Shown here: positions 5,303-30,150 of the stretch, piece after piece | How the letters are laid out: the number at the start of each line of letters is the position of its first letter | Numbering within the stretch: position 1 is the stretch's first letter | NCBI GenBank assembly: GCA_963706795.1 | Contig: OY970170.1 | Coordinates: forward strand, 30,001 to 62,000 | From: Candidatus Saccharimonadota bacterium | Lineage (GTDB): Bacteria > Patescibacteriota > Gracilibacteria > BD1-5 > UBA2023 | Direction of reading: 5' to 3' | Length of the DNA stretch: 32,000 nt | Notes under the pieces: generated by a model | The model's database searches: none | Told to the model about the DNA's origin: nothing | The model's input: the letters and a program-made list of their open reading frames with translations, nothing else | Program-made: the position numbers and the translations under genes

Positions 5303-5719
5303 ATGAAATTGGATACCAACATGGAAGTCGTTCCTGCCCGAACAAAACAAAGATGAAGGCCTCGCGTAGCAAAAGCTCTAGAAACAGCCAAAGATGCCAC
5401 GTACAAAACACTTACCCCTCCATCCAATCAGCCATACCAAAAGCAGATTGCATATGACAAAGTAAGCGCATTCATCGACACAGGAATCCTCCTCGATGGA
5501 AAGATCCGTGGCAAGGAATTTTTTAAGGGCTACGGCTTTGTAGAATTTAGTGAATCTGCCTACGAATTTCAGGCATCAAATGTCCTTATTAACCCAAGAA
5601 GACACGACGGGTTCGAACAAATCAGGATTGGTATGAATGTCCGATTTTTAGTAACTGCGAGCAAGATAAACTCAGATGGACTCAGTGTCGAGATTGTCAT
5701 CAAAGAAATCTCCAAATAG
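5303..5719 (+). CDS. small hypothetical protein with N-terminal AT-hook (R-G-R-P, Gly encoded by TGA) and possible OB/cold-shock-like C-terminal half
   Basis: ATG at 5303 gives MKLDTNMEVVPARTKQR[TGA 5354-5356]RPRVAKALE...GKEFFKGYGFVEFSESAYEFQASNVLIN...RIGMNVRFLV..., ending at TAG 5717-5719. It is absent from the standard-code track because the TGA splits it. Confidence 0.5.
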
Positions 5720-5725
5720 GAGACC

Positions 5726-9033: not shown

Positions 9034-10314
9034 TTATGAGCTGTTATTTAAAAGAAACTGTTCATGAAATTTGTAATCATCGAATTTGTTGGTGACATGT
9101 ATTCAATATGTATGAGCCATATCGAGTTGCTCAAGCTCAGTCAGTGTGAGGTTGAGACTATTTGCAAGATGCAGACTTTTGATTCAGGCGGCACTTGCCC
9201 TTACAAGGACCTTGTGCAAAGAGTCCTTATGAAAATTCTTAATCGATCGAAAAACATTCTGTCCCAAGTCCAGGCTCCGAATACCTGCTCGCCCCGCTAC
9301 TTCTAAGAAATGACTAATATCATCGACATTTTTAAGGATATCTTCCAGATCATTGTTTTGAAGACTCAAATATCGTATTCCTGCATATCCTGCAGTCTCT
9401 ACAAAACTTTCAAGTTCTTTAAGACTAAAGATTCGTTCGAGATGATTCTGCCCGAAGTACAGACTTTTTATGCCTGATCGTCCTGCTACTATGGCCATTT
9501 CTATGAGCCCTTTTGCATCAATAGCACAAGCAGTGGGCCTGTCGTATGCAAACGCTGTTCCACTGAGATCGAGACTTCGAATTCAAGCAAGGCCAGCTGT
9601 CTTTACAAACTGGATGAGCTCTTGTATGGTGAATAGACCTATTCATTGTACTTTTTCACCTATCGATGCATCAAGGTGACGAATTCATTTTTCTCATAAT
9701 TCTTTTACAAGCGCGATAAATTCTGGGGTGGGTAGCCCGTTACAATATTCTGAGTTTGAGATTTTGAGCGCAGTGATTTCATCGGCGCACATATTCTCGA
9801 GTTGTGCATAAAACTGCTCTTTATGCTTGGTATCTATATGCATTCACCATGGCGTCGCACCAACACTCCCTTTGCGCTCGTAGATGAGATTATCCAATCA
9901 AAATTCCTGGATAAGTTTCTTCCAAAATTTATTAAAAAGCTCGGGTGCGACATTTTGGCCAATGATCGCGGCATATTCTGTGAATGCCTCACCGAGTGGA
10001 GTCAGCTCTCATTTTTGTCGAAATACTTGCTCTTCGAGGTTTTGAGATATTCGAGCATCAGAGAGGAGAATCTTTGTTTTATATTCACTGAAATTATATG
10101 GAAGTTCAGACGTCCTAAATAATTCTATATGCTGGCGAATTAGGGATTCGAGATGCGCAAGATGCTCTTGGTTTGCTTGTATATTTTCTTGTACATCTCA
10201 TCAAACCAGGTTTAAAATCTGTGCTATATGCTCCCGTATGTTTGGCTGCGCAATAAAATGAGCGATCGATGAGATCGATTTTTGAGAGACGGGATCGGTA
10301 TGATGAATAGACAT
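9034..10314 (-). CDS. array member 15: N-module/LRR family protein (426 aa)
   Basis: ATG 10312-10314 gives MSIHHTDPVSQ...IAQILNLV...YNFSEYKTKILLSDARISQNLEEQVF...LGEAFTEYA...KLIQEF[TGA]LDNLIYE. The LRR units include VKTAGLA[TGA]IRSLDLS, MAIVAGRSGIKSLYFGQN, VETAGYAGIRYLSLQNN and LEVAGRAGIRSLDLGQN. All 427 codons were translated without TAA or TAG, ending at TAA 9034-9036. Track fragment: 9184..9498. Confidence 0.85.
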
Positions 10315-10317
10315 GGA

Positions 10318-11286
10318 TTATCTCTTATAGATTACATGAATATTATATCTGCTTTGGATCTCTTCTAACTCGCAACGTTGCGCATATGAAGAATTCGGCT
10401 CGTATCACGAATTACGAATATTAAGAAAGCGAATACCTGATTTACCTGCAAGTTCAACGAGTGTTAAAAGCTGAGCAAAACTGTATGCACGAAATAGGAT
10501 ATCATTAAGAATCTTCAAAGTTCGCACGCCTGATGCACCCGCAACTTTCACAATATCGAGAAGGTCATCAAAACTCAGAACATGGCCGATATTACTGTCT
10601 CGAAATTCAATAGCACGAATCTCCATACCTCAGGCAATTTTCATAATCTCTATAAAATCCTCTTTACTCAGTATTCAAACTACAGATCATACTTCAAAAA
10701 TGAGAGTACGACTCCCCTGACTCTGACAGTGAGAAACAAAACCAAAAATACTGTCTCGAGAAGAAGGTCAAAAACCGTGAGACTTGTGAAATCTCTTCTC
10801 ATTTAACAGATCACTCGTGGCCGTATAAATAATCGCGTCTAATCCAAGCTCAGATATGAGTTTGATTTTAAATTTTGCTCATATTTCAGATCCGTGAGAC
10901 AAATTCATGCATTCGAAATAGTCATAGAATGCCCTTTTGAGCGGCTCAGAATATGGCTCATTGAACACATCATTTTCAAGTACTTGCAGCATTTCGCTGT
11001 CTGTAAGTAGGAGTCATGTAGGATACGTGTACCATTCGTACAATGGGGGCGCTCTACGGACTTCCAAGGCGTAATTTTGTATACAAAGATACAGATTTGA
11101 TTCGAGCTCTTTTGTCTTGTAATAGCTCCTATCAAGCTCTATTTGAGACTCGTCGGGGAGCATATCTAAAATCCGAGTCACAGCCTCATGAATTTCTGGC
11201 TGCGTGATAAAAGAACTATCTGGGATGATGGACGCATTTAAAATCGGGGCGAAATTTTGATTAATCATAGGAATATGATTGTTCAT
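10318..11286 (-). CDS. array member 14: short N-module/LRR family protein (322 aa, only about 3 repeat units)
   Basis: MNNHIPMINQNF...VTRILDMLPDE...AFYDYFE...KFKIKLISELGLDAIIY...IMKIA[TGA]GMEIRAIEF...VKVAGASGVRTLKI...VELAGKSGIRFLNI. Track fragments 11014..11286 and 10405..10626 are joined by TGA-only gaps that I translated. Stop is TAA 10318-10320. Confidence 0.85.
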
Positions 11287-12874
11287 ACTGCTCGAGTTCG
11301 ATCATGATATGATCTGTGGGGGCGAATATAATGCTTCAATTTTCATAGGTATCGTAGACAACGAGTTCGACTATGAGATTATTTGCCTGCGCAATTGCAC
11401 GCATTTCTTGCTTAGTGTCTTCAGAAAAAATGACCTCACCGTAGGTTCCTACATAGAGCTTTTTTATTCAGGTAGAGGCCATATGAGTCATAAGTGGCAC
11501 TCCGTACTCATCCGAGAAATCTAAGCCTGGTGTTTCATGATTAAAATATAAGTTTTTAATACCTGATTCTCAAGCAACTTTGATCATATCCACGACATCC
11601 GCGATTGAATAATCGCAGGATTTCCAATTGCTAAATGCAAAATCGCGGATTCCCGACTCCCCTGCAAGTTTTGTGATTTTTATAATCGATTTGAAATCCA
11701 AAGTCTGTTCAAGGTCACTGAGCTTAAGATATACTTTTTTTATACCGGATTGCCCCGCCGTTGAAATTAAATGCATAAAATCATCGATGGTTGCACCTTC
11801 GTACATATCCAAATCTGAAAAGTAGATAGCCCGTATACCTGATTTTCCTGCTATTTTTGCAATCTCAGTCCAATAGTGGATATCTGGCTTCACCAAGGTA
11901 TTAAAAGAAATATTCGAAAAACGAATGTCGCCAAACCCCGCTTGTCCAGCCGTACGAACGATCTCCATAAGCGACTTCGGATCTTGATTTTTCTGAGTTT
12001 CTCGAAAATCAGCCTGTATATCAAGAAACTCCATCGTGATATTTAGACGATCGAATTCCCGCAGAAATCTACAGGCGTCTTTGGGATCAAACTTCAATAA
12101 GAAATCCCAAGTTGGAAGCTTGAACACGGTGATGCCTTCTGCATTTGCTGCATGCAAAAGCTCCAGAGCTCCATCACAAGAATCTTGCCCTCTGTAATCG
12201 AGATCTAAATACTCGAGCTTAACTGATCCTTTGGCCGCAAGGTGGATATGTTTGTTAAAATCCTCGAGTGTCAATCCGCTGGCTGATGGCTCAGTGTAAT
12301 CAAGTCGTAAAGCAGTCGCCCCCGCTTGTCTCATTAACTGAATCTGAGAGATAAATTCTTTCTCATTCGAATATACAATATCCTTCGAATCCCAAAAAAG
12401 TCACTCATCTATTCTATAATTTGAGCCGATATCCCCAGTTTGTTCGTACACAAGATCACCAAGCCCGAGATCTTGCATAACTTTTCGCTTAAATTTTTCC
12501 CTAAATTGCGCATCAAGAGGCTCAATCGAGTCTATATGATTGTAGAAGACATTCTGTAGGTCTGCAAGATCAGCATCTCTGATAAATACTTCCTCGAGTA
12601 TTCTGAGCACTTCTTTCCTTGGCAGCTGAAGTCGTTTTGCGTAGTCCTCAAAATTATAGGTGGACTGAGTTGCAAGGTATGCGCTGGCAAGCTTTCGAAT
12701 ATTATCTGCCAATCGATGCTGCACATTAAGTTGAGTATCCAACTCTTTAATTCAGTCATCAGGAATGAGACTGAGGATTTGAGAGACATTTTCACCTATG
12801 CTTGACTGCTCGACAAAAGACCCATCTGGAAGAATGGGGGTGCCTGATGCGAAAGCGATATTCTGATTATTCAT
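11261..12874 (-). CDS. array member 13: N-module/LRR family protein (537 aa)
   Basis: ATG 12872-12874 gives MNNQNIAFASGTPILPDGSFVEQSSIGENVSQILSLIPDD[TGA]IKELD... Track fragments 12401..12742 and 11570..12334 are followed by a translated 100-codon tail (...VA[TGA]ESGIKNLYF...AST[TGA]IKKLYV...) ending at TAA 11261-11263. Confidence 0.85.
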
Positions 12875-14423
12875 AAACATGATACGATCAAGCTCTACCA
12901 TCGAGAATGAGTCTTATGTTATTTGTTTGAGCAAAGGCACACATTTTTTGCTCAACATGTGTAGCAAAGTTCACAAGACGGAGGTCGTTTACTTCTAGAT
13001 TTTTCATGCCGGTATCTGCCATAATAGCAAGTAGTAGCATCCCATCGTCATCAGAGAACCCAATACCGCACTTATGCATATGAAGCTCTAAACTTTTTAT
13101 ACCTGAAATTCAGGCAGTACGTATCATTTCTGTAATATCTGAAGCAATCCATTCACGAGCTCAGCTGTCATGATCATAATCTCCATGAAGGCTGAGACAA
13201 AAATCAAGAATTCCTGAATCTCCTGCACATTTGAGCAATATCTCAGCAGTTTTGGTATCCAAAATATCCTCAAGTCCGCTCAGTCTAAAATTAAATCTTT
13301 TAATGCCCGAGTGACCTGCGACTGAAATTAAGCACATGGCATCCCGTATATCTGTAGTTTCATATATCTCAGTTTTCCCCATGGTAATACTCTTGATACC
13401 GGAATCACCCGATACCTTGGTAATTTTTGCCCAATAATCGATATTCGATTGAATAGACCCTCAGAAGAAAATGCCAGAAAAATCAATATCACCCACCCCA
13501 GCATTCCCCGCCATTTTTACAATCTTCATAAGCAACTTTGGATCTCTATATATTTCAGAATCACTATCACTCAGATCAAGATTGCCACCCGTCCTATTGA
13601 GATTTTCAAGTTCCTTAAAGAAATTCTGAATATCTTTTTGCTCAGAATCAAGCAAGAAAGACTCAGTTGGGAGCATAAGTAGGGTAATATTTGCCTCTCT
13701 TGCGACATGAAGTAACTCTATTGCCTGGGCACAATGAAGCCCTGGATACGCGATATCCACATAATGAAGTGGCACTATTCATTGCGAAGCGATCTGAATA
13801 TGTTCTTGGAGTTCCTGGGTAGTTAGCTGACTTATACCAGTATAATTAAGGGTTAATGAGGTGATTCAGGTTGTTCTCGCAGACCGAATCTTTGAGCAAA
13901 ATTGCGCGACATCCTTGCAGCATATTTCCTGATGTTTATCCCAAATATCTACTAGATAGCTTGACGATATATCTCCAGTCCGTTGGTAGACAAGATTGTC
14001 CAGATTCAAATCCTGTACGACTTTTAGTTTAAATCGTTCTCTAAAATTTGGGTCAAGATTTTGAATCGAATCGACATACTCATAAAAAGCTTTTCACAGA
14101 TCCGTGAGAACGTTATTTTGTCGAAATATCTCTTCCTCAAGAATCCTGAGTACTTCTTTGCTCGGCAATTGAAGACGCAGAGCATAGTCTCGAAAATTAT
14201 ATGCAGATTGTGTACCTAGATATTCTTGTGCAGCTTCACAGAGATGATCTGCGGATTGATTCACGAGAGTGAGCTGCGTGCCAAGGTCTTCGATTCACTG
14301 CTCAGGAATAAGGCTTAAAATCTGAGAGACATTTGTTCCAATATCAATTTGCTCGCCAAAAGACCCATCAGGAAGGATGGGTGATTGATCAGTGGGAGCT
14401 AGATGATTAAGAGATAGTGACAT
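12867..14423 (-). CDS. array member 12: N-module/LRR family protein (518 aa)
   Basis: ATG 14421-14423 gives MSLSLNHLAPTDQSPILPDGSFGEQ...SQILSLIPEQ[TGA]IEDL...YNFRDYALRLQLPSKEVLRILEEEIF... This N-terminal part is invisible in the track because TGA chops it. Fragments 13461..13775, 13161..13382 and 12888..13079 are in the same frame. RTA[TGA]ISGIKSLEL is present. Stop is TAA 12867-12869. Confidence 0.85.
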
Positions 14424-15954
14424 AGTCATCGTATTCACGGGCTCTAAAGCCCAATTTAAAATTATGAAGTCTCGCCATATCTGTAAGTTGTTGCATGGAT
14501 TCTTCGGAAAGCTTCTCTCCTCGATATATACCTCCTAAATGCAAAATACGAATACCCGAAGCCACAGCCACAGTGATAATCCTCATAAATATCTCCTCAA
14601 CAGGATTTTTGGATTCTAGGATTTCCGTGGAGTTAAATAGACTATTATTATTAAGATTCAGGACGCGAATTCCAGCCTGACCCAAAGCTGTAATGAGACT
14701 TAAATAGCTATCTAAACCACCTTGCGGAACGCGATAGCTAAAATAAATATCTAGGATTCTCACTCCTAAATTGCCCGCAAGCTTGATTGCATGTATAAAT
14801 TCTTCAACTTCTGTGCTACTCTCCAAATTGATCCGTCAAGTATGCATCCCTTTAATTCCATGTGCACCTGCAGTGGAGATTACTTGTGTAATTCTTTGTA
14901 TTGCAAGATGAGACAGATCTCATGATAGATCTCATCAGAAATCTAAATTCTTTATTCCGGATATTCCTGCCGCTCTCATGAGCCTAGTACAGTCGTTAAC
15001 GCTCAACAAAGATGCATCTAGCATCAATTTAAGCTCTCTTATTCATATTGATCCAGCAATACGCACTACCTCTATAAGAAAATTAATATCTTTAAGTGAT
15101 GGATTTAGTTCATCCGAAAGTTCTAGGCGATCTACAATTATATCCAATTGAACTCATTTTTTTAAAATACGCTGCACATTCTCAAGGTCTCAATCCAAAA
15201 GAATTGCACTTTCGATCCTGAGCTGAACACCAAACTCCCGAGCAGTCTCGTATAACTCTTCAATTTCAAGAGAGGACAATCAATTAAAATCAATAAATAT
15301 CTGCTCAAGCTCACGCCTCTCTACAACAAGCCTGATATGATCTTTCAGGTCTCAAAGCGTCAAGTTCTTGGGTCTGCCATATACTTCATAACTGAATACT
15401 ACCTCCGTAACATCTCTGGGTAGCTCACGAATAAAACCTGCAAATAAGTCAGCTTTATCGTCATCATAAATCAATGAAGCCTGTTTTGCTTCTTTCTTTT
15501 CTATCTCAGGAAACTCATACACGAGATTCGTAAGTCAAAAGTCTTCAATTACCTTTAGCTTCAGCTTCGTGTCATATCACAAATTCGCATTCGAAATACT
15601 ATTTATATAGTCATAGAAGGCTTGTCCTAGAAGATTTATAACACCATTTTTTTGTAAGATTTCTTTTTCAAGAATACTCAGAACTTCTTCGGTTGGCATA
15701 AGTAGCCGCCTGGCATAGTCTCTAAAATTATATTTAGATTGGACTTGGAGATATGTTTCAACAGCTGTACGTAGATTGTTCGCTGACTGATTGAGACTAT
15801 GGAGTTGCAAATCCAGTTCTTGGCGTTGCTCATCAGGAATGAGATTTAAGATCTGAGCAACATGTTCACTGATGCCTGATTGCTCGCCAAAAGACCCATC
15901 AGGGAGGATGGGTGATTGATCAGTGGGGGCGAGATGATTAAGAGATGATGACAT
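14407..15954 (-). CDS. array member 11: N-module/LRR family protein (515 aa)
   Basis: ATG 15952-15954 gives MSSSLNHLAPTDQSPILPDGSFGEQSGISEHVAQILNLIPDEQ... I translated 14827-15576 in frame and found 11 TGA and no TAA or TAG. KVIEDF[TGA 15535-15537]LTNLVYE is present. Track fragments: 15577..15960 and 14407..14826. Stop is TAA 14407-14409. Confidence 0.87.
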
Positions 15955-17473
15955 AGCCACAGTAAGCGTTAGCCATAAAGCCTAATGTAAAATTATGCAG
16001 TCTCGCTGTGACTGTGAGTTTTTGCATGGATTCTTCGGAAAATATCTCACCTTTATATGAGCCGCCTAAATACAAAACATTGATTCCGGCACCAGCAGCT
16101 ACCGAAATTATCCTCATAAGTACTTCCTCGATTAGATTGCCAGACTCTAGGATTTCCTTTTCGTTAAAAAAGTCACCATCTCCAAAATGCAGGACGCGAA
16201 TTCCAGCTCGACCGAAATTCTCTATAAGGCTCAAAAGATTATTGAATCCGTATGGTAAGTCGAGATGGCTAAAATCAATTTGTAAAACTCTCACTCCCAA
16301 ATCACTCGACATATTCATACATTCTTGAAGCTCTTCAAACTTCGCTTGAGTTTTGAGATTAATGAGTCAAGTATGCATATGCTTAATTCCACATGCACCC
16401 GCGTGAGAGATAATTTGCATAATCTCTTTTACGTCGAGCATATCTAATGGTGTGACGGCAAAATTTATACTCTTTATCCCATACATTCCTGCCACTGTAA
16501 TGAGTTTGAGATACTGCTCGACCCTGAGTAGCTCATACGCCCTAAAACTCAGCTTGCTAATTCATATTAAACCAGCAATGTGAGTCATCTCAACGAGGCG
16601 ATCAAAATCCTTAAGAGCAGGATTCACCTGATCAGAAAGCTCTAAAGAATTTGCAGTTATGCCTGATTGAACACATTTTCTCAAAGCATTACTTATATCA
16701 TTAGGGCTTCAATCTAGTAGCATTGCGCTATCGATCGTCAATTTGAGCCCAAATTGACGCGCTGTTGCTGATAATTCTTCAGCATCGCTTGGGGTCAATC
16801 AGTCAATGGTAATCGATATTTCCTCTAGTATCCTTGTCTGTGCAGCGAGCTTAATGTGATCCTTGAGATCTTGGAGCTGTAGATGCTGAGTAATATCTCT
16901 ACTGTAATGAAATAGTATTTTTTTTATATCAGCTAGTGTCTCGAGTATGTCGCTCTGAATATGATAATCTTCGTCATATTTATACATTATTAATTGCGCC
17001 TTCACTGGCTCTTTCTTGTTGGTATCAAGACGCTCATAGACTAAATTAGCAAGGCCAAAGTCTTTGATTACTTTTAGTTTCAGTTTTTCAGTATCAGCAA
17101 AATCCGTATCTGAAAGATTATGTGTATAGCTGTAAAATGCTTCTCATAGGAAGTTTCTCACGCCGTTCTTTTGCAAAATTTCTTCCTCAAGAATTCTAAG
17201 AACTTCTTGACCTGGTAGCCGGAGACGTTTAGTATAATCCTCAAAATCATATCCTGATTGTACCTGGAGATATGTTTCAACAGCATCACGAAGTCGCTTC
17301 GCGGATTGATCCAAAATATTTAACTGCACATTCAGCGACTTACGATCCTCATCAGGAATAAGACTCAAAATCTGTGAAACATTATCCCTGATACCAGACT
17401 GCCCACTAAAAATACCCTCAAAATTGATGAGCGATTCGTCTGTATGGTGGATCGAGTTATTAGGAGCAGTCAT
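15938..17473 (-). CDS. array member 10: N-module/LRR family protein (511 aa)
   Basis: MTAPNNSIHHTDESLINFEGIFSGQSGIRDNVSQILSLIPDED... Track fragments 17144..17473, 16799..17005 and 15938..16318 are in one frame, and the gaps I translated contain TGA only. VIKDFGLANLVYE is present. Stop is TAA 15938-15940. Confidence 0.87.
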
Positions 17474-17481: not shown

Positions 17482-19008
17482 TTATGTTCGAATGGTAGCT
17501 ATCATGTTGTAATCCTTCATGATTTCATTGAGCTTTTTCTTATATGCCTCCGAGAATTTAGCGCCATGGAAGCGACCAATTTCTAAATTTTTCATCCCGT
17601 GCGAAGCTGCTGTAACAAGAATTTCTATGTGTTCGTCTTCAGTATATACGTTGGAATACTTATGCTGAACATGGTCACCCGAATAAAAATGAGTATTGAT
17701 ATGCAGCGCTTTAATTCCACAATCTCCAGCTGTTTTGAGGATATCTATAATTTCTGCCATAAGCACCGCGCGATCTATCTTAAAAGAAATCTTTAGATCC
17801 AAAATTCACGAATCACCTGCAGCTTTTATAAGCTCTTCGATATCTCGGATATCTCATATGTAGCGCAAGCTGAGTCTCTTAATACCGACAGCACCTGTAA
17901 TCTGAATAAACCTTATAAGATCATCGAGGGTGTCTTCGTGCAAATCTGTCTCTCATAAATCTAAACTTTTAAACCCAGTAGAACCTGCACAATTTACAAT
18001 TTCAATCCAGTCACTCATATCAGCTCATTCAAATGACAATGACATTGCAGAGAGATTGAGATCACGAAATCAGGCCAATCCAGCAGTCCGAACTATCTGC
18101 ATAACCTCATCCTTATCTTGAAACCAATTAGCATTCGAATCATCAAGATTGAGATAACCATTACTCAGTCCAAGACGACCAAATTCTCTTAAAAAGTTTC
18201 ATGCTTCAGGAGGATCGACTTCTAATAAAAAGAGTTCGGTTGAAAATTCGAGTGCAAGTATATCGAGGCTATGTGCCATATACAAAATCTCCAAGGCATC
18301 AGCACAACTCAATCACTCATGAGATATTTTTAAATACAGGAGCTTACCTGGACCCTCTGCCGCAGCTCGCATATGCTCTTTGATATATTCGATACTCATT
18401 CAGGTATCTTGAGCGAGACGCTGAGAATAACTAAGTTCTACTGCGTTAATTCAAGTTTGCCGTATACGTCGTATATTCGATAAAAAAGTCTCCAAATTAC
18501 CTTGGCCCAACTCAGGAAAATGCACTGGTGTAAAAACTGGACTCACTTCCACGGTCGTGAGATATTCGTACACCAAACGATCAAGGCCAAAATCCTTGAT
18601 GACCTTAGCCTTAAATCTTTGCTCAAGAAGCTTATCAGTGCGATCTAACAAGCTCACATAGTCATAAAAAGCCTCTCCCAGAGTGGTCTTCTCGCCATTT
18701 TTTATAAAGTATTCCTCCTCAAGGATTTTGAGAATGCGCGCATCCGAAAATCGCAGTCGTTCGCCATAATCTTTAAAATTATAGTCAGATGGTTTCTGGA
18801 GATATTCATGAACTACTGCACTTAATTGATCCGCAGATCTTTGGAGTGCATTCATTTGAGCGCTAATTCTTGATCGTTGTTCATCAGAAATCAGCCCTAA
18901 AATCTGTGACACATTGCCTCCAATCTCCGACTTTCCACCAAAAGAATCACCCAAAATGGATGTATCCTCTCTCAGAATATCTTGTGGTCGCGGAGATAGT
19001 GCTGCCAT
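17482..19008 (-). CDS. array member 9: N-module/LRR family protein (508 aa)
   Basis: MAALSPRPQDILREDTSILGDSFGGKSEIGGNVSQILGLISDEQ...VIKDFGLDRLVYE. Track fragments 18451..19008 and 17482..17802 are joined by a translated 650-nt stretch with 9 TGA and no TAA or TAG. Stop is TAA 17482-17484. Confidence 0.87.
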
Positions 19009-19102: not shown

Positions 19103-20692
19103 TTACCAAACATGATAAAATCCGCGATCGTATGATCCATATGTCAATTTCATCTGGTGCTTTGTATAAACCCGATCAATATAAATAGAATGATGAGGAT
19201 CATCTTTTGGTAAAAAGAGATTTTTAATGCCCGAGGCAGCAACATAAGAAAACAATCTTAGATAAGCATCTGCCGTAAATTTCTCGGGATTTTTGCTTAT
19301 AAACAAACCATTATTTCAAAAATGAAATACCTTGATCCCCGAGCTTCCAGCTGTTTGTAGAATTCCATTAAATTCTGTAAGATCACCTGAAACCGGAAGA
19401 GTTGCATATCCATTGGATGAGAGATCGAAATCGCGTATTCCTACATCCCCAGCAGCTTGTACAATAGTCTCCAAATCTTTAAAACTCGTCATAGCAGCAA
19501 GATCATTGTCACTCAAGCCGAGTTTTTTGATCCCTGCGAGACCTGCTGTCCGTACGAGCAATTGAATATCCTGCACACTTGAATCGAGGCTTAACCCTAT
19601 ATCAGAGAGATTAAGACTTTTTATTCCGGCAAGCCCTGCTACTTTGACGCATTCAATCCAAAAATCTATGCCAATATGAGGAAATTGCATTCACAAATCA
19701 ACGCTCGAAAAATTAATCTCTCGAATGCCTGCAGCCCCTGCCAGTGAGACAATCCTAAGAATAGACTCTGGAGTTACAGTATATGGGTCATTTCAGGTAT
19801 TTGATAAATCAAGATACGTGGTTTTGAGTGTGCTCGTCGCATTAAGACGACCTATTTCCTTTAAATATTCGAACATCTCTTCATAGCGCCATGCTCGCAG
19901 TAGGCCATGCTCTAAGATTCAAAGATTCGTCATTTTTAACTCAGTGGCAGTACGTAGAAGTTCAATAACCTCATAACTTTCGAGTTGCCCCTCATGAACT
20001 ATCTGAAGATATTTGAGCCCTGGAACATTCTGTGCAGCGGTTTTTATATGTGCTTTTATACTCCCTAACTGTCTCTCAAGCACAATATCAGATTGATCCC
20101 CATACTGGAAAATCAAAGTATTTCTCCTGTATTCACCTGCCTCCACTATCTGTGCATGGAAGTCCTGATATGGATGATAGTCTCTCGACTTATTATAATG
20201 GAGTTGCTCTTTTTTGGATGACTCATCATTGAGATATCCCTCGCTTGCTCGCTCATGCACCAAGTTATCTAGCCCAAACTCCTTGACGACCTTAATTTTA
20301 AACTTTGTCTCATCTACCTGACTCAGTCCTGTCATGGTTTTAATATACGCGGCAAATGCTGCTCACAAAGGAGTTTGTGTATCATTTTTTTGAAATACCT
20401 CCCGTTCAAGAGTCTCAAGGATCTGAGTATCTGCAAGCAAAAGACGCTCCGAGTAATCTTGGAAAGTATAATTGGATTGTTCACGATTAAACTCCTCAAT
20501 TGACCTTAAAAGTCCATTCGCCACTTGCTGAACATGACCTAGATCCTGATCGAGTGATTGACGTTGCTCGCTTGGAATGAGATCAATGATATGAGCAACG
20601 TTTTTACCAATATCAGGACGCACCGCAAAAGAACTATTTGATGGAAGAATAGGAAGTGGCAATGCTGGGGGCGTTTGATTATTAAGAGACAT
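19103..20692 (-). CDS. array member 8: N-module/LRR family protein (529 aa)
   Basis: I chose ATG 20690-20692 (MSLNNQTPPALPLPILPSNSSF...) by alignment with the sibling N-termini. Fragments 20363.., 19919..20335, 19316..19690 and 19103..19306 are in one frame and I translated the gaps. The LRR units include VKVAGLAGIKSLNLSD, VRTAGLAGIKKLGLSDN, VQAAGDVGIRDFDLSSN and LQTAGSSGIKVFHF. The stop is a genuine TAA at 19103-19105. Confidence 0.87.
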
Positions 20693-22256
20693 ATGTGGGA
20701 TTTTTGTACTGAGTACTTCAATACACAAGCTGCATGCCGTAAGACTGAATGATCTTGATGTGTGGTGCGTTATCAGACAAGATTTCATTTAGATGATCGA
20801 TCGTGAAATCCAAATTTTTCATTCCTGCAGTTCCAGCCGTAGCAAAGAAATTGAGATAGTTTCGTTCTCTTTCGGAAGCCCGTATTGCCGCTCATTGAAA
20901 GCCATTTGATCCAAAATGAAAGGTCTTGATTCCAGCCATTCCAGCAGCTTCTACGACATTTGTAAAATCACTGAGATCAGATGCTGCAGGGATATTCTCA
21001 TAATCATTATTTGAGAGATCAAGGTCTCGTATGCCTGCTTCCCCTGCTACAGTGACAATTTCTATGAGGTCATCAAAATCAATAATCTCAGCAAGCCAGT
21101 TAAATCCAACATCCAATTTTTTAATACCCGATCTCCCCGCGGTCGAAAAAAATGTAAGGATTTCAGCTAGGCTTGCCTCTCGAAATAGATATGTCATATT
21201 GAGATTTAAACTTTTGATCCCTGAGCGACCAGCAATCTCTACGAGCTTGGTAAAAAATCAGATATCAGCCTGGAATTGCCTTACAAACTCGCCTCGACTC
21301 AGATCAAGATCAACGATTCATGCGAGGCCCACGGCACGTATAATTTTGAGCATGTCTTCTGAGTCCATCGTATAAGACTGTGCGGCAGTCCATGATGATA
21401 GATCTAAATATGATGTCGGGAGAATACTTTCTGCATTAAGCCTCTTAATCTCCTTTAAAAATCTGATGACATCATCAGCTGGCCATGTTTTTAAAAAATG
21501 ACTTCCTACAAAGCTTAAATTAGGCAAACCGAGATCTCGTGCCATACGCAGACGTTCTATCGCCTCATCGCAATTTATGTGTCATCCGTAGAATCTGACT
21601 TTAAAGGTTTTGAGTTTTTTGTTGAGTGTCACAGCCTCAAAATGCTGTTTCACTGTTGCTGCATCTACACGTCTGTTGTAATAGATCTGACAGTGATTTA
21701 CTTCACTCTTCCAAGCATTACGGATACTTGATAAAAACCTCTCTTCGGAAATATCATCATCATGCTGAAACTCATAATCATTCACTTCATCCACAGGTCC
21801 CAAAAAATCCTGATCAGATTCGTATACGAGGCGCGCCAGTCCAAACTCTTGGACAATCTTGAGTGTAAACGTATCTACGTCTTGAGTATCAGATCCAGTA
21901 ACAAGGCTCAGATAAGAATAAAAAGCACTTCACACCAGAGTAAGAACGCCATTATTCCTAAATATCTCACGCTCGAGAATATCGCGTATCGTTCTCTGTG
22001 ATATCAAAAGTCGTTTCCCGTAATTTCGGAAATTATATGTAGTTTGCAGACTCAAATACTCATCAGCAGAGGTTCGAAGTAAGCTAGCTGCTTCCTTTAA
22101 AAACACGAGCTGAGTACCCAACTCTTGGATTTGCTCATCAGGAATCAGACTCAATATCTGTGACACACTCTTCCCTACTCATTTTTGATCAGCAAAAGAA
22201 CCATCGGGTACGATGGGTGATCATGGAACAGGAACGATGTGATTAGTTAGAGGCAT
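20682..22256 (-). CDS. array member 7: N-module/LRR family protein (524 aa)
   Basis: ATG 22254-22256 gives MPLTNHIVPVP[TGA]SPIVPDGSFADQK[TGA]VGKSVSQILSLIPDEQ... Fragments 21930..22166, 21582..21803, 21318..21545 and 20892..21197 are in one frame. I translated the gaps and the tail down to TAA 20682-20684. Confidence 0.87.
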
Positions 22257-23805
22257 ATGTTCAACGTCAGTAACTAAATTGCATATCAGATAACTGCATA
22301 GTCTCGAGCATTTTTTGGTACATTTCTGGAGAAAATGCAGCCTTTAGTTCATCGCGTGTTAAATGAAAACTCTTGATGTCAGAGGCTTTCAACGTAGTAA
22401 AAAAGTTCAGGTAGCCTTGTTCAGTAAAATTGCGAGTGCTTGCATCGATCACAAAACCATTCCATCAAAAATCAAATATCTTAATGCCAGCTTCGCTAAC
22501 AGTTTGTATTAGCTCAATCCACTCCTCAAGATCATCTGCAACCTGAATCTGTGTATAACCATTATATGAGAGGTCTAACTCACGTATACCTGAAGCTCAT
22601 GCAACCCGTGTAAACTCAGTCAGTTGTTTAAAATCCATGATTCCAGCGAGATATGTTTCAGCGAGATTGAGACTTTTAATACCACTAAATCCAGCAACTC
22701 TAACGAAGTTGAGTGCATCATCAAAACTAGCACCGCGGAATATGTCTGCATTCGCTAAATCGAGCACTCTTACTCCGGAGAGACCAGCAACTCTTGCGAG
22801 TTCGATATAAAATCAAACATCGACACGCAACTTTTTTTGAAAAAGATTATGCCCAAAATCTATACGACGAATTCACATCCGACCAGCAATTGCGACAATC
22901 TTTAGAATGGATTCTGGCCTCATTGCGTATGCTTTTGCACCCCAAGATGATAGGTCTAAAGCTGAATTATGCATCTGATTTGATATGCCGAGGGAATCCA
23001 ACTCAAGCAACAGTTTTAGTAAGTCTTCCTCTTGATATTCTTGTAGAAAATCATTATATAAAAATTCTATGTGTGGCATACCAAGATCAGCGGCTGTATG
23101 CAGGAGTCTAATAAGTGAATCACAATCTAATGTCGGATTCGTAGAGATATAGAGCCGTTTGAGTCATGCAAGTTTTGCTGCAGCTGTGATCTGCCTCTCT
23201 ATGTCTTCTACACTCACCGGAATACGGTATGTAAAAGATAGGCCATCGATATTGTCTCTATTAGCTTTACGGATTTCTGAAAGAAAAATCTCATGATCCT
23301 CTGGAATCTGAAGAATGAGTCGCTCTATTTTTAGTGGCTGATTCTTAGCATCCGAATCACGCATACTTTCGTATACCAAACGATCCAGTCCAAAATCCCT
23401 CATAATCTTGATTTTAAACTTTGACGTATTTGCTATGTCTGAATCTGTCGCAATATTCCAATAGCTATAAAAGGCTTCTCCTACAGAGGTAAGACCATCG
23501 GCATTTACAAGGATTTCTCGCTCGAGAATATCGATCATTGCAGAATCAGAGAGCTCGAGACGATCTCTATAATTTTGGAAGTTGTAATCACCTTGAGCAA
23601 GCATAAATTCTTCTACAGATTTACGTAGTTGAACTGTGGCGGTCTGCAAGAGACTGAGTTTAGAGTTCAGCTCTTGGTGCACTTCTTGGGGAATGAGGCT
23701 CAATATTTGAGCTACGCTCTTCCCTACTCATTTTTGATCAGCAAAAGAACCATCGGGTATGATGGGTGACTGTGGACTCTGGGCGAGATGATTATTTAGT
23801 GACAT
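22243..23805 (-). CDS. array member 6: N-module/LRR family protein (520 aa)
   Basis: ATG 23803-23805 gives MSLNNHLAQSPQSPIIPDGSFADQK[TGA]VGKSVAQILSLIPQE...IMRDFGLDRLVYE. Fragments 23164..23703, 22873..23079 and 22267..22452 are in one frame. I translated 22453-22872 (ARVAGLSGVRVLDLAN, VRVAGFSGIKSLNLAE, TRVA[TGA]ASGIRELDLSYN). Stop is TAA 22243-22245. Confidence 0.87.
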
Positions 23806-23808: not shown

Positions 23809-25431
23809 CTAGTATGTAAGCTCTATATTATAGCGCTCTTGTGCGGTATGAATTTCTGGTGCAAGATGGAGGAATCTCTTCTCAGTAAAGCCTTCATATA
23901 TATTTAAGTAGCGAATTCCAGCATTTCATGCAACCTCAATAAGGCGCAGTATTGAAATATCATCTAATTTCGCCAGGATTCAGGTATTATACGACAAATT
24001 AAGATGCACAATCCCTGAAGCTCCTGCAGCCTTTAAAAAGGCGAGGAGGGCTTCTCAAAAGAGGATATTTCAGAGTTTATTTTCCTCAAGACTTAGGCTT
24101 TTAAGATTGGCTTTTGGTTTTAAGGTTACGAGTTCAATGAGTCAGACAAGATCAAAATTCTGCCCAGCAGAGGTGGATATTTTAAGGTATTGCAGACCAT
24201 TTTGCACTGCTCTATGTGTAAAAAGTATCAAGTCGTCGTACGATACACGACGTGCTGGCATACATATCGCAATCCCTTTGAGTCGAGACGATCCTACTAA
24301 ATCTGCTATCTCATTAAATGCCTGAGAAGTAAGCTGATATGCAAAATCCCTATCATTAATATCTAAGTTCGGTACGTCAGATGCGGTTACCGCAGTAACT
24401 AACTCCACGAGTTCCTCAGACTCTAGATGAAACTTCGGATTTCCCACAAAAGTAAGTCATTCTACTTTTGATGCAGTTATAGCATTCACAACTGTAATAA
24501 TTTGATCCACAGAAGAGCCACCTTCTATAAAGAGAGGCACGTTGAGATTTCGTAAACCAGCCTCACGAGCAGTGCTAAACAGTTCTTGATATGTCCTCTT
24601 AAATTTAGCCCCATCAATTCAACGAAATCAAAAATGCTGATTTACCTGTCTAGGCAGGGCAATATTCTCCACGCCGGACTCACCAATGGCCTTCACAAGC
24701 TCCAAGATCATGGTGCTATCGAGATATTGTATGAGTTTAAATGCCGAAAGATCGAGATGTTTCACTCATGCTTTACCTAGGAGCGCAAGAGATTGCATAC
24801 ACGCAACAAATACTGCCTGTACATGTTCGGAGTCTTTCGCACCACCTGAAAGAACGAGTATTTTTCTGACATTTTCTTTCAGACCTACTCTTAGAGATGC
24901 AACGCCATTTAATGCCTGTAATGCTTCATTGAATTGCTCAGCATTACTAAAATCGATGTTTCCCCATCAGAGAAATAACGATTCGACTCACCGCTCACAC
25001 ATGAGCTCAAAAAATCAAAACTCTCGCAAGAGTTTGATACGCATCTCTGTATGAAACTTGGCGTCATTTTGGTCTACTAGGTAGTCAAGATATGCATCAA
25101 GATTTTTAGCAGCTTCAGTCGGTATTCAATTTTTGTGGAGGATTTCATTATCAATCAGCTCCAAAATTCGCTCATCTGACATAACAAGTCTTCTCTGATA
25201 TTCAGCAAAAGGACATCGCACTTCTGATTTTCTAAATCATTCGACCGATTCCTTGAGTTTATTCGCAAGCATTTCGCCCTTTTCGAGTGCTGTTAAAAAT
25301 CACGCCTTGCCCTCACTAGGCAAAAGCTCGAGAATCCCATTTACATTTCGACTGATTTTTTGGTCAGCAAAACTATATCCTGAAAGTGCAGGAGTATTTT
25401 GGTCGGGTGCGGTGTGGTTGAGGCCTGGCAT
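23809..25431 (-). CDS. array member 5: divergent N-module/LRR family protein (540 aa, about 15 in-frame TGA)
   Basis: ATG 25429-25431 gives MPGLNHTAPDQNTPALSGYSFADQKISRNVNGILELLPSE... All 541 codons were translated by hand without TAA or TAG. The standard-code track shows only one fragment over 60 aa (24142..24447). Motifs: LGKA[TGA]VKHLDLS, AREAGLRNLNV, LKAAGASGIVHLNLSYN, IEVA[TGA]NAGIRYLNI. Stop is TAG 23809-23811. Confidence 0.85.
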
Positions 25432-25435: not shown

Positions 25436-27004
25436 TTAAATAAGAAGACGGAGATTGAATTTTTCGGCGATTACCCTTATCTCAGGCAAAAGGTGATTGA
25501 ATCGGCCAGCGAGATTACCGCCAGAGAAGTCCAAAAATCATATTCCAGCAATTCCAGCAGTATTTAAAAACTCAAGTAATGAGTGATCGTGTAACAAATC
25601 TCCAATATATCCGTGATTAAATTTAAGACTTCTCACTCCTGACTTCCCTGCTAATTGAATAAAACCCATTAAGCCAGCCATATCTTCTGTGAGATAAATA
25701 AAACTGAGGTCTATATTTTTTAGTCACACAGATCCTCCATCCTTAAAGAGATCCATCCAATCCGCTATTTCAAAACCGGTAGATATTAGACTCTCAGGTA
25801 ATTTGATATCTCGCACTCAATTTTTACTAGCAATATTGGCAAATTCGATGAGATCTGGATATGTAATGTGTGAATACGTATTCAGAAATATATTGAGATT
25901 GAGCGAGGTGTGACCCGAAGCACCTACTGCTCTCACAAACTCAGCAAAATCCTGCGTCGAAGTGGTAGCTGCAAAATGATAATCACTCATCTTTATTTTG
26001 TTTCTGAGACCAGATGTAGCAGCAGTGTTTAGGAGAGTTATTGCCTCTGTAATAGTATATTCTCGGTGTGTCCCGTCAGCCATATTATCTCCGAAGGTTA
26101 TACTCTGTAATCATGATGCACCCGCAGTACGAAGGAGTTGTTGGATATGCACAATGGGCGTATCTCGTTTAACGAGTGAGTTCTCAGTGAGAATGAGCTC
26201 ACGAATACCAGCTTTCCCAGCTGCTTCTACAAACTCTAAAAGCTCTTCAAATTCTCAAAAACTATCCTGTAAGTCATTCGATGACAAATCAAGCACTGTA
26301 ATCCCAGATGCCCCAATTACTTTTACGATCTGTATCCATTCTTTGGGAGTATATGAAAAGCATTTTAAGAGGGCAAGAGCCTCAACATTTGAATGCTTTA
26401 AAACACCAATAATCTTCATAAGATATGGAGCATCCATGCCATCTTCAACAGCAATGGTTGGCATCATTGCATCAGTAAGTTGCCCGATTACAGACATGAA
26501 TTGCTCCATGTATTCAAACTGTACTTCAATGCTCTTTTTTGGAGCAAAAGAGGGATAATACTCACTCTCAAAAACCAGATCCTCGAGCCTAAACTCAGTC
26601 ATGATCTTTTGCTTCATATTTTCATAAAAGCCTGTATCATCCTTGCTCACAATGCTTGATATGTAAGCCTCGAGAGCTTCTCAAAGGTCTGTTTGAATAC
26701 CATTCTTATGGAGGATATTCTCATGAAGTATCTTTTGGACTGCAGACACATTCAAGACAGTCAGTCTTTCGCTGTAGCCAGAGAAATTATAACTTCTTTG
26801 AGTTTCTTTGACCTTGAGAATCTCTTCAGTGAGCCTAGAGGCAAGCCCTTTGATATGCTCGAGGGATGAAGCAATTTCTGCATGGTGATTCTCTGGAATG
26901 AGCTCGAGAATCCTATGAACGCTTTCGTTCATTTTGTGATCAGCAAAATATCCCTGATCTTTAGGATTCAATGAGTCGAGAGCGGAATTATTAATCGAGG
27001 ACAT
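25436..27004 (-). CDS. array member 4: N-module/LRR family protein (522 aa), close paralog of member 3
   Basis: MSSINNSALDSLNPKDQGYFADHKMNESVHRILELIPEN... Fragments 26681..27004, 26255..26650 and 25817..26083 are in one frame. I translated the gaps and the 127-codon tail (...IQLAGKSGVRSLKF...NTAGIAGI[TGA]FLDFS...RFNHLLPEIRVIAEKFNLRLLI). Stop is TAA 25436-25438. Confidence 0.87.
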
Positions 27005-27027
27005 TAGTCGGTCATAAGAATTTGGAG

Positions 27028-28572
27028 ATTATATTTCTCCGTAATTGCTTGTATTTCTCACAAAAGATGATTGAATCGATCCGAAAGATGACTATCAGAA
27101 AGATCTAAAAATCATATTCCGGAAGCTCCCGATGCAGTTAAAAATTCCAGGAATGAATCATCATCTAGCAAATCTCCAATACTTCTATTGCCAAATGTAA
27201 GACTTCTCACTCCTGACTTACCGGCTAATTGCACAAATCGTATTAAATCATTGCTATTTCCGAAGAGATGAATCGAGCCCAGGTATATGTTTCTTAAGGA
27301 TGTAGAGCCGTGTTCAAATGGTTTTATTAACTCTGCTATTTCAAAGCCAATAGATGCTAACATCACTGGTAATGTAATATCTCGCACTCCATTCTTACCA
27401 GCAATGTACATGAATTGGATAATGTCTTTGTATGATATTTCTTGGTATTTGCCGAGAAATATATTGAAATTAAGTGAAGTGAGACCCGAACTACCGACCA
27501 CCCTGACAAACTCGGCAAAATCCTGATGCGAAGTTGTGGCGGCAAAATGATAATCATCTAATCTGATTTCATTTCTGAGACCAGATTCAGCTACTACCTT
27601 TATCGTGTCTATAGCATCCAGATGAGTAAATACTGGCCTAAGATGATGATCAATAAAGTGCAAAAAATCTATCTTTTGAAGTCCTGCTTCACCTGCAGTA
27701 CGAAAGAGTTGTTGAATATTTTCGAGAGGAGTATCATTTGTGATCAATCAGTTCTCATTAAGGATGAGCTCGCGAATACCGGCTTTTCCAGCCTCTCTTA
27801 CAAATTCTAAAAGCTCTTCGAATTCTCAAAAGCTCTTCTGCAAAGCATTTGATGATACATCAAAAATTTTGATCCCTGCTGCACCGACTGCTTTTACGAT
27901 TTGGATCCATTCTTGAGGAGTATACGAAAAACATTTTATGAGGGCGAGCGCCTCAACATTCGAATACCTTAGAACACCAATAATCTCCGCGAGGTATTCA
28001 GCATCCATGCCATCTTCAACAGCAATGGTTGGCATCATTTCATCAGTAAGTGATCCAATTTTAGTAGTGAATTGCTCCATATATTGAAATGGTACCTCAA
28101 TCCGCTTTTTTCGAGCAAAAGATGGATAATACTCGCCCTCAAAAACTAGGTCCTCAAGTGCAAATTCAGTCATAATCTTCTGGCGCATATTTTCGTAGAA
28201 TCCTGCATCATCTTTGCTCGCAATGCTTGATACATAGTTTTCAAAAGCTTCTCAGAGTGGGGTTTGAATACCATCCTGGCAAAGGATTTTTGTATCGAGC
28301 GTCTTTCGAATTTCATCTACGCTTAAAAGAGTCAGTTTCTCACTATAGTCCAAAAAGTTATAGTACTTTTTGGTCATTTTGACTTTGAGGATTTCCTCTT
28401 TGAGTCGAGCACCAAGTACTTGATTGTGCTCAACAGATGTTACAACATCAGCAATACCAGACTGCGGAATGAGCTCGAGAATTCTATGAACACTTTCATT
28501 CATTTTTGGATCAGCAAAATACCCCTGATCTTTAGGATCTGATGAGTCAAGAGCGAGATGATTGAGCGACAT
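27028..28572 (-). CDS. array member 3: N-module/LRR family protein (514 aa)
   Basis: MSLNHLALDSSDPKDQGYFADPKMNESVHRILELIPQS... Fragments 28252..28572, 27826..28188 and 27112..27747 are in one frame and I translated the gaps (FVREAGKAGIRELILNEN[TGA]LITND). The tail ...TASGASGI[TGA]FLDLSDSHLSDRFNHLLVRNTSNYGEI ends at TAA 27028-27030. Confidence 0.88.
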
Positions 28573-28596: not shown

Positions 28597-30150
28597 TTAT
28601 GAGTTATTGCTCACACTTGCAGCAATCGTCACATTGCTAGACCGAAGGATTTCACGGAAACTGTCTATGTCTCATTGAGAGTAGCACGCAGCGAGTCACG
28701 GTAGCAGGACTCACTCTCCTGACATATCTAAGTACTTCAGCCCATTTTCACCCGCGACAATGACGAGTGAGGAAAAAGCCGGCAAGGAAAAAATATCGTG
28801 CATACCATTCCATGCAAAACTTAATCTCTTGATGCCTGCACAACCAACAGACCTCACAATATCAATAAAATGCTCCATTTCTTGGGTATAATCATTATCA
28901 TATCCACTCGAATTCACACTCAAATCCCTGATCCCAGATTCTCAGGCAATTTCTATAAATCGCTTAAATCCATCAAATCCAAGCACAGACGAGAGTGATT
29001 CGCTATTAAAAACAAAACGCTTAATGCCAGATGTGCCTGCTGTTTTGACCATCAAAAAGAGATCGTCTGGAGTCAGATGAGCATTCACCATCTCAGTGGA
29101 TGAGAGATTAAAATCGGTAATACCGGAGTTACCTGCAACACGAACGAGCTCTATGAATTGATTAAAATTCATAATGTCCTCAAAAGAGTTAGAAGACATA
29201 TCCAGACGCTTCATGCCCGCATGTCAGTATGCGCGGACTATATCAAATATTTGTTCCGCATTAAATCGGCAACTCAATCAAACTCAGAAGTTCGATGCAA
29301 AACTCAATTGTTGCATGCCGAGCTCGTCTGCTATACGTATATAGTCATAAACCTCCTCCAAAGTCCATTCCGCGAGCGGATACATCGATCAATCTATTGA
29401 TGGTATACCATATTCTTTTGCTGCGTGCATAAGCATTACAGCTTGTTGGTAAGTGAATCTATCTCTTCATACGACCCGAACACGTTTCGGCAGATACGGA
29501 CCTTTGCTCAGTAATTCTAAATGTGCCTTTATTTGCTCAAAATGTACCGTGGGCCTTGAAGAGTAGGAAAGACTCACAAAATCATGCGGGGAAGTTGTCT
29601 GCTCTCGTATCTTTGACGCCATCGCGTCATCGCTGTCTTTTGCGGTCATCCTGATACTCACATCCGAAGGCAATACGTAGATATCTTCAGAATTTGCCAG
29701 AGTCGCGTTACTCGGTCTCTCATATACCGCGTCCAAGAGCTTAAATTCTCGGATCACTTTGCGTATCATGCCTAGCGCAATCTCGCCTCAGTCTATTTGT
29801 AAACATTGTATATATTCACGGAATGCATTTCATACAGGAGTTTCAACACCTCGAGTATTGAGAATTTCCTGATTAAGCAGATCCATAATCTCTTCCTCTG
29901 AGAGTAAAAGTCGCTCTGGATAATCACGGAAGTCATACGAAGACTGCTCGAGCTTGAGCGCATCTACGGCACTCTGTAATCGAGCGGTTATCTCATGCAG
30001 TTGCTCAAATTGAGCACTGAGCACACTACTCTCCTCGACTGGAATAAGCTCAAGAATCTGGTGAACATTCGCACTAATTTTTGGATCAGTAAAATACCCC
30101 TGATCTTTAGGATTTGATGAGCCGAGTACGGAGTGGTTGAGACCTGGCAT
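28597..30150 (-). CDS. array member 2: N-module/LRR family protein (517 aa)
   Basis: ATG 30148-30150 gives MPGLNHSVLGSSNPKDQGYFTDPKISANVHQILELIPVE... Fragments 29830..30150, 29467..29769, 28942..29214 and 28711..28923 are in one frame. I translated all gaps and found TGA only; RAY[TGA]HAGMKRLDMSSN is present. Stop is TAA 28597-28599. Confidence 0.88.

Follow-up and report, generated by a model that had tools for sequence, protein, structure and literature searches.

In the MoxR-vWA systems, the metal ion-dependent adhesion site (MIDAS) recognises an extended peptide, and the protein so bound is remodelled by the ATPase; a recurring trait of the ternary systems of this class is the use of N-terminal adaptor modules to attach variable proteins to the core (Kaur, Burroughs, Iyer & Aravind 2020, eLife 9:e52696; PMC7159879). 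Here we describe a gene array in a stretch of 32,000 nucleotides (positions 30,001 to 62,000 of contig OY970170.1, assembly GCA_963706795.1; hereafter the window), in which 15 complete tandem genes on the minus strand (9034-31721) encode proteins of 342-561 aa under translation table 25, each made of a conserved N-terminal module (N-module, or head) followed by ribonuclease inhibitor (RNI)-like leucine-rich repeats (LRRs). At least six other loci of code-25, Gracilibacteria-type metagenome-assembled genomes (MAGs) have tandem LRR genes that begin with the N-module, which is a lineage-restricted domain without earlier description. We tentatively regard it as a common docking or hand-off head, one that would couple many diverged LRR binders to a single ATPase-VWA core.

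The pairing of an AAA_5 (MoxR-clade) ATPase with a VWA protein, together with a variable and expanded third component, gives the system the same logic as the MoxR-vWA ternary systems (Kaur et al. 2020): in both, a core of a MoxR/dynein-clade AAA+ ATPase and a vWA protein with an intact MIDAS is accompanied by diversifying components in the same locus. However, the third component here consists of 2 to at least 16 tandem LRR proteins instead of VMAP, inactive STAND (iSTAND), FtsH or a beta-propeller, and neither the members nor the VWA protein yielded a Pfam domain of the VMAP, inactive STAND, FtsH or vWA-fused beta-propeller kind. The head, unlike the effector-associated domains (EADs) of those systems, has no duplicate on a partner, and the VWA protein bears an N-terminal HExxH domain; moreover, the ternary systems reside in multicellular bacteria, whereas the hosts here are unicellular, genome-reduced Gracilibacteria-type MAGs. 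A second group of relatives comprises RavA-ViaA, CbbQ-CbbO, NorQ-NorD and midasin, in which the partner of an AAA_5-type ATPase is a VWA adaptor that holds an acidic residue of a client domain or peptide in its MIDAS; in the midasin clients Rsa4 and Ytm1, the handle is a small conserved N-terminal ubiquitin-like (UBL) domain, to which the head may be likened. The present system differs in that its ATPase, at about 730-900 aa, carries large extra N- and C-terminal regions, its putative clients form a whole multigene family, and its head lacks a UBL fold, the only PDB ubiquitin matches lying at E ~0.9.

Across the 15 array genes there are 120 in-frame TGA codons. The paralogous position opposite such a codon is Gly in 27% and another TGA in 11% of cases (background Gly 6.8%, Trp 0.4%), and all 15 genes end in TAA or TAG; therefore, the organism uses genetic code 25, in which TGA encodes Gly, as in Gracilibacteria and Absconditabacteria. 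In the ninth gene (member 9), TGA is the sole interrupter of the reading frame and is placed where paralogous repeats have Gly, as in AGLA[TGA]FRDLNLS compared with the paralogous AGDSGI..L.L. The interval 18451-19008 (minus strand) is the 185-aa table-11 open reading frame (ORF) of this gene, broken at a TGA that encodes Gly; under table 25, the gene runs from 19008 to 17482 and encodes 508 aa. In the 'LGEAF' motif of the N-module, the conserved Gly is encoded by TGA in 8 of the 15 members, and most in-frame TGA codons occupy Gly positions of the AG-x-S-G-I repeat, for example at 18451-18453 (minus strand). Viewed under table 11, the window is a series of many short ORFs, and in public protein collections the array genes are present as table-11 fragments only. 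Such calls, which shatter the array genes, combine with a head that has no domain model to render the system invisible to annotation pipelines.

The conserved core of the N-module spans about 146-153 aa in all 15 members and ends at '..LVYE' (residue 148 of member 9, position 18565). The first-pass annotation, made from the letters of the window, had assigned the whole of 18451-19008 to the module; the conserved part extends to about aa 150 (18559-19008), while residues 151-185 form a variable linker. The motifs that it listed recur in the listed order in 15/15 members, with the qualification that PILPDGSF(G/A)(E/D)Q is literal in about five members and is represented elsewhere by variants such as DQGYFADPK. 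Residues I36, Y81 and K135 are invariant among the 15 members, and M1, L37, L39, Y76, F78, L85, L96, Y117 and L142 are at least 90% conserved. With a 15-member profile, hmmsearch recovered foreign members in loci L001 and L009 at E 1e-32 to 1e-37, and the window members at E 1e-46 to 1e-62 each, the latter values being circular because the profile was built from the same members. An AlphaFold2 (AF2) model of member 9 aa 1-150, computed with an alignment of window-exact fragments (predicted local distance difference test, pLDDT, 84.3; predicted template modelling score, pTM, 0.69), has residues 1-25 disordered and the remainder in a confident compact fold, with helices at 27-38, 42-70, 78-85, 89-101, 109-119, 126-139 and 144-148 and a small hairpin at 102-107. 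The N-module is predicted to combine a disordered tail of about 25 aa with a compact helical bundle, in which about seven helices are accompanied by a single small beta-hairpin.

The C-terminal part of the members has the features of an RNI-like LRR horseshoe. The motif AG-x-SGI-x-x-L-x-L is repeated in the window members, and the AF2 model of a foreign homologue (P0012) shows strand and helix alternating nine times in the LRR part at pLDDT ~85-95. Foldseek matched this part to CARMIL (E 2.5e-4) and to the RanGAP Rna1p (TM-score 0.36/0.43), and a Pfam search of four window members placed LRR_1 above its cut-off in one (26.2 bits vs 20.6) and otherwise returned weak LRR_4, LRR_6 and LRR_8 matches. 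Window and foreign members also share a C-terminal tail of the form (K/Q)-(Y/F)-N-(M/I/L)-x-(L/I)-x-(Y), seen as ..ISQKFNMYLSID in member 1 and ..IAKQYNMKLDYSD in L001, which is probably the C-terminal cap strand of the LRR.

The proposal that the N-module is a candidate new domain is supported by every library searched. Scattered single-member noise was all that Pfam (full proteins and all 15 heads), NCBIfam, PADLOC and PHROGs returned; the best PDB match in a sequence profile search was CheA at E 0.05; Foldseek of the model against PDB gave a best E of 0.16 with a TM-score below 0.3, and against BFVD nothing at E <0.1 or with a TM-score above 0.3 for the whole module. No strong match to a known domain thus emerged from the sequence-profile and Foldseek searches. 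The nearest likeness concerns DUF4046 (PF13255), to which no member has a direct Pfam match: DUF4046 repeat proteins score E 5e-5 to 3e-4 against the N-module profile via three or four short stretches, and hhalign assigns a probability of 55% over 35 columns with the rest of the head unaligned. The stretch concerned is N-module aa 82-116 (18661-18765 in member 9), where RL-x-L-S-D-x-x-I-L-x-x-L-E-x-x-x-F-x-x-N-G resembles the 35-column repeat unit (K/R)L-x-L-S-D-E-E-I-x-x-x-L-x-x-x-x-F-x-x-N-G-L of DUF4046. The common motif may be a small helical element; DUF4046 proteins differ in carrying it as tandem repeats inside one protein, and that family is itself of unknown function.

The same searches bear on the idea of a head with enzymatic or toxin activity, or one that binds nucleic acids in the manner of a winged helix. 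The string Y-N-F-x-D-Y-x-x-R-L-x-L-S-D-x-x-I-L-x-I-L-E-x-E-I-x-x-K-N-G is superficially like a helix-turn-helix (HTH) followed by a wing, and the model places helix, helix and beta-hairpin at aa 78-107; nevertheless, no HTH, winged-helix or enzyme family recurs across members in Pfam or NCBIfam (HHH_6 appears in a single member at E 0.028), and no winged-helix structure is among the Foldseek PDB matches. Conserved polar catalytic residues are lacking: I36 and Y81 are hydrophobic or aromatic, K135 is a lysine, and the nine positions that are at least 90% conserved are hydrophobic or aromatic. We consider an enzymatic, toxic or nucleic acid-binding head, the first two of which had been entertained in the first-pass annotation, to be very improbable.

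Pairwise identity among the N-modules ranges from 20 to 65% with a mean of 35%, compared with a mean of 26% for the rest of the proteins, and in 90 of 105 pairs the N-module shows the higher conservation of the two parts. In the closest paralogue pairs, synonymous sites are saturated (proportion of synonymous differences, pS, 0.54-0.82), the corresponding nonsynonymous value for the head (pN) is 0.19-0.33, and dN/dS is 0.12-0.26 for the head vs 0.27-0.45 for the LRR part. Saturated synonymous sites and low dN/dS therefore identify the conservation of the N-module as purifying selection and not as recent gene conversion. Recent conversion or cassette recombination was considered separately and rejected, the longest nucleotide repeats between paralogues being merely 60-81% identical; in addition, the module is kept in the orthologous arrays of other genomes.

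Among public sequences, a word-seeded search of 5.8 billion proteins returned the window's own table-11 fragments alone, and an exhaustive HMM search of 1.84 billion representatives yielded 31 proteins, about 20 of them foreign and mostly consisting of head plus LRR. Many of these foreign homologues show W at an expected G, which marks code-4 calls in code-25 organisms. The N-module is always N-terminal, and LRR repeats come next in every match long enough to tell. The foreign loci belong to 'Ca. Gracilibacteria bacterium STC_112' (L001/L004, 8 members), GCA_020049755.1 (L009, 5 members), a MAG labelled Peribacteria (L005 and L006 of the same MAG, with tandem head plus LRR genes), GCA_002747975.1 (L007, 6 members arranged as 2 + VWA + 4) and three ENA assemblies (L002/L003, L008 and L012, the last with VWA and 2 members). 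Homology to the window heads extends to the diverged heads of L007 and L012 (hhalign 97%, E 1e-10). Pattern scans of the window type found no match in genome contigs or metagenome contigs, and a scan with an alignment of the foreign type found three loci from two MAGs in genome contigs and no match in metagenome contigs. The family is rare: two scans of JGI metagenomes were empty. Its definition as a family provides a search handle for the system. We found no description of LRR arrays or MoxR systems in Gracilibacteria or Absconditabacteria in the literature; a published closed Gracilibacteria genome (1.34 Mb) with a PTD-repeat locus comes from another organism, and that locus is another kind of feature.

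Wherever a locus extends far enough to reveal the neighbouring genes, ATPase and HExxH/VWA genes bracket or interleave the arrays, with the gene order ATPase, N-module-LRR members, HExxH/VWA or the order ATPase, VWA, members. This conserved arrangement is seen in L001/L004, L009, L005 + L006, L007 and L012, and the window, in which the members lead into the VWA gene, matches the related loci. The ATPase has the Walker A motif GDTGSGKTE and the Walker B motif IIDE(V/T)N, and the ATPases of related loci exceed the Pfam AAA_5 gathering cut-off (38.9 and 46.1 bits vs 22). The genome from which the window comes also encodes an ATPase homologue (P0040), on the 1,267,896-bp contig to which the window belongs, that is 75% identical to the ATPase of L005. 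Directly downstream of the array, 6488-8980 (minus strand) encodes an 830-aa HExxH protein with a VWA/MIDAS-like part, which has orthologues of about 800-830 aa in the related loci. Invariant in four genomes are HELSHF (HExxH), NCIDDIIVN, an acidic low-complexity linker and a C-terminal DxSGS...GGTND...ADxD, of which the window protein has the MIDAS-like set DISGS...GGTND...ADND. The family aligns over 575 columns with a 721-aa Pfam-VWA protein (hhalign 98.1%, E 9.5e-14) for which the Pfam match was precomputed and which adjoins a distant homologue of the locus ATPase. These similarities point, indirectly, to a vWA domain with MIDAS aspartates in the window protein. Its HExxH domain has a weak match to the DUF4344 'putative metallopeptidase' family (E 0.004) that lies below the family cut-off.

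More distant loci extend the picture of the pair. In L010 (12728-21836; ERZ27280282, 62% GC, with an ATPase gene free of in-frame TGA), the same ATPase/VWA pair flanks seven LRR genes, which have an N-region of about 150 aa conserved among themselves and share the tail ..DPAVWAPLSARPKGPDFQY. A distant AAA_5 and HExxH/VWA pair in L014 (6242-13177) has no LRR array and is flanked by two paralogous non-LRR proteins of 316 and 319 aa. A further AAA_5 and HExxH/VWA pair without an LRR array is found in L016 (95-11392), about 4 kb upstream of a gene for a VirD4/TrwB-like coupling protein.

The first-pass annotation had suggested an adaptor that serves many LRR sensors, and the form of this idea in which they share a common partner fits best, given that arrays elsewhere have a single AAA_5 ATPase gene and a single HExxH/VWA gene as neighbours. 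In the mechanism that we propose, the variable LRR horseshoes would bind different ligands, such as proteins of a host cell or an invader, and the constant head would be captured by the MIDAS site of the VWA protein or by the ATPase, possibly via an acidic/aromatic N-terminal peptide (..P-D-G-S-F-x-E/D..) or via the invariant aromatic surface (Y76, F78, Y81). ATP hydrolysis would then remodel, release or hand over the LRR protein or its cargo, and the HExxH domain might process either of them. Physical docking, the partner contacted and the biological target are what we infer in this model, which offers a testable interaction hypothesis in the form of the head against the VWA/MIDAS protein or the ATPase.

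Several observations weigh against the docking head. No ATPase gene lies within the window, where the upstream ATPase is expected beyond the edge. The window VWA protein has no direct match in Pfam or PDB, and its assignment is indirect because those direct searches were negative. The window VWA protein and its two closest database homologues (P0062 and P0063) share about 62-64% identity, whereas the N-modules reach about 30-39%, so that the N-module appears to evolve faster than a simple fixed docking interface would predict. In L010, which retains the same pair, homology between the N-region and the window N-module is undetectable (hhalign 2.5-3.5%). Finally, a full-length AF2 model of a foreign member has a good LRR part and a head of low confidence that is unplaced relative to it.

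The homotypic form of the adaptor idea, in which the head would pair with copies of itself on its partners in the manner of an EAD or a death-like domain, was not supported by comparison. Neither the VWA protein nor the ATPase holds a copy of the N-module (hhalign of the 15-member profile, probability 0.2%), and for this reason the head is not an EAD in the sense of Kaur et al.; the companion proteins of the distant locus L014 likewise hold none by hhalign. The only death-like fold among the Foldseek PDB matches is Fas-FADD (9ncq) at E 2.9 and probability 0.06, and Pfam gave no such match. A related suggestion is that heads associate with one another, so that mixed LRR oligomers or a scaffold would form with the ATPase and VWA proteins as assembly chaperones. 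The head is the sole feature common to all paralogues, its model contains a long amphipathic helix (aa 42-70) in a helical bundle, and MoxR-vWA pairs have been implicated in complex assembly (PMC7159879). However, the AF2 monomer is compact and confident by itself, no coiled-coil or oligomerisation family was matched beyond single-member noise such as VASP_tetra at E 0.87, and the heads differ by up to 80% among paralogues, which runs counter to promiscuous homotypic pairing. Self-association as the function of the head is, in our judgment, unlikely.

The HExxH protein that is always encoded beside the arrays, with its DUF4344 similarity, raises a different possibility, namely that the head caps the LRR as an auto-inhibitor or serves as a cleavable pro-domain, to be removed by the adjacent metallopeptidase-like domain on activation. 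The variable linker that follows the head would suit such cleavage, but it shows no visible conserved cleavage motif; the HExxH domain has no significant family match, and the full-length model does not confidently place the head on the concave face of the LRR. We regard a pro-domain as quite improbable.

The earlier claim that array members lack a signal peptide and a transmembrane segment was borne out by Kyte-Doolittle hydropathy: within the first 45 aa, the best 12-aa window is at most 1.45, compared with 2.64 for the neighbouring secreted ice-binding-like protein, and the best 19-aa window anywhere in the members is at most 1.78 and is located within the LRRs; no h-region of Sec/Tat type was seen. 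The first 25 aa, disordered in the model, are rich in S/T/P/N/Q, neutral to acidic, and contain 0-2 K+R. These features, together with a repertoire that resembles one for host interaction (at least 16 fast-evolving, diverged LRR genes in ~23 kb, or ~2% of the 1.27-Mb source genome), are consistent with a head that directs export or translocation by a non-Sec route; a diversified set of LRR effectors, possibly along with the HExxH/VWA protein, would be sent out of the cell or into the host bacterium, the AAA_5 ATPase serving as a dedicated chaperone or energiser. Against export stand the lack of any membrane channel or secretion-system gene conserved in the loci, whose flanking genes vary (DUF6629, RF-1, DprA, Dus and others), and the fact that MoxR-vWA pairs are known as cytoplasmic chaperone pairs (PMC7159879). 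With regard to type VII secretion systems (T7SS), no WXG100 or LXG family is among the Pfam matches of any member, the locus ATPase is of the AAA_5 and not of the FtsK/SpoIIIE (EssC) type, and the Y-x-x-x-D string (YNFKD) in the N-module is not diagnostic by itself. We regard export as possible but doubtful.

The extreme N-termini have a bearing on export as well. Within a lineage, the VWA protein and the array members start with similar residues over the first ~6-10 positions, a likeness that the N-terminus of the ATPase does not share: L001 and L009 share MSPLTP, L010 shares MNSP, and in the window MSPL.SNAP of the VWA protein corresponds to MS.LNHLAP of the members. The comparison covered 8906-8980 (minus strand) against the starts of members 1-15 in the window, and the starts at 10981 in L001, 15248 in L009 and 21864 in L010; in a permutation test, 2/720 pairings match as well as the observed one. 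This pairing would favour a peptide signal for export; however, the shared N-terminal codons may instead be a feature of the mRNA or of a duplication junction. In L001, the similarity runs upstream of the ATG, as at a duplication junction, and in L009 it is limited to 17 coding nucleotides. The first 60 nt of the 16 genes (members 1-15 and VWA) are C-rich (0.28-0.32 vs 0.19) and G-poor (0.12-0.17 vs 0.21), a composition that could reflect an initiation-region constraint shaping the S/T/P-rich N-terminal peptide; reading of the start regions revealed no obvious Shine-Dalgarno sequence upstream, although no formal scan was made. The upstream similarity in L001 and the C-rich, G-poor starts thus make an mRNA-level cause inseparable from a peptide signal.

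Returning to the docking head, a eukaryotic analogy is provided by the FBXL receptors of SCF ubiquitin ligases, in which a small N-terminal helical docking module is joined to a variable RNI-like LRR and many paralogues serve one enzymatic core. The logic of the array is the same, as an analogy only: the head has no F-box signature, no Pfam F-box match and no Skp2-like Foldseek match, and the presumed core is an AAA_5/VWA/HExxH set instead of a cullin ligase. Gracilibacteria and Absconditabacteria remain uncultured or nearly so, depend on hosts and have genomes of ~1.2-1.3 Mb; little is known about the ways in which they recognise host cells and exploit them. Head, LRR and ATPase/VWA pair appear to be parts of a dedicated machine that is probably host-facing or defence-related, and the system is relevant to the biology of the Patescibacteria (candidate phyla radiation) and to conflict and host-interaction systems. 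On the broadest reading, which is decidedly speculative, the array would provide an episymbiotic or predatory bacterium of reduced genome with a diversified set of receptors, in which dozens of fast-evolving LRR binders bear a private docking head and a lineage-specific N-terminal tag and are loaded onto, activated by or exported with the aid of one AAA_5 ATPase-VWA-metallopeptidase machine for host recognition or immunity. If this were true, prokaryotes would have an equivalent of 'one engine, many F-box/LRR or NLR-type receptors'; the head would represent a new class of adaptor domain, and the locus a fifth type of MoxR-vWA multi-component system.

The array genes, all on the minus strand, are tightly packed: neighbours meet at TAATG junctions or overlap by 8-17 nt. 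Numbered from the upstream end, the N-modules of the first seven members lie at 31284-31721 (gene 30150-31721), 29713-30150 (gene 28597-30150), 28132-28572 (gene 27004-28572), 26561-27004 (gene 25436-27004), 24988-25431 (gene 23809-25431), 23362-23805 (gene 22243-23805) and 21813-22256 (gene 20682-22256). That of member 8 lies at 20246-20692 within ORF 19103-20788, for which the internal ATG at 20692 (MSLNNQ...) is the likely start. Member 9, the modelled one, is followed by member 10 at 17027-17473 (gene 15938-17473) and member 11 at 15508-15954 (gene 14407-15954), by member 12 at 13977-14423 (ORF 12867-14429, likely start 14423) and by member 13 at 12437-12880 (ORF 11261-12901, likely start 12880). 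The N-module of member 14, a short member, is placed at 10816-11286 (ORF 10318-11346, with an uncertain start at 11286 or 11268), and that of member 15 at 9871-10314 (gene 9034-10314). At the window edge, 31846-31998 (minus strand) encodes the C-terminal 50 codons and stop of a 16th LRR member (...EAAGCAGIGVLKLG...KYRMQLTFD*), and the array therefore extends past the window. The two members nearest the VWA gene, of 342 aa (10318-11346) and 426 aa (9034-10314), are shorter and have fewer repeats. In L007, one member (13051-14144) is apparently split into pieces of 165 and 224 aa; the shortened members and this split member suggest ongoing decay and turnover of the arrays.

Downstream of the VWA gene, 3857-6373 (minus strand) encodes a DUF6629 membrane protein, a MazG-like protein, a 168-aa protein with a weak Fib_succ_major match and a MarR regulator, none of which is kept beside the system in other loci. 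On the plus strand, the ice-binding-like (PF11999) surface protein encoded at 835-2346 has a clear signal peptide and a DUF7507 domain, and a sortase gene follows it at 2383-2997; both are cell-surface genes unrelated to the array.

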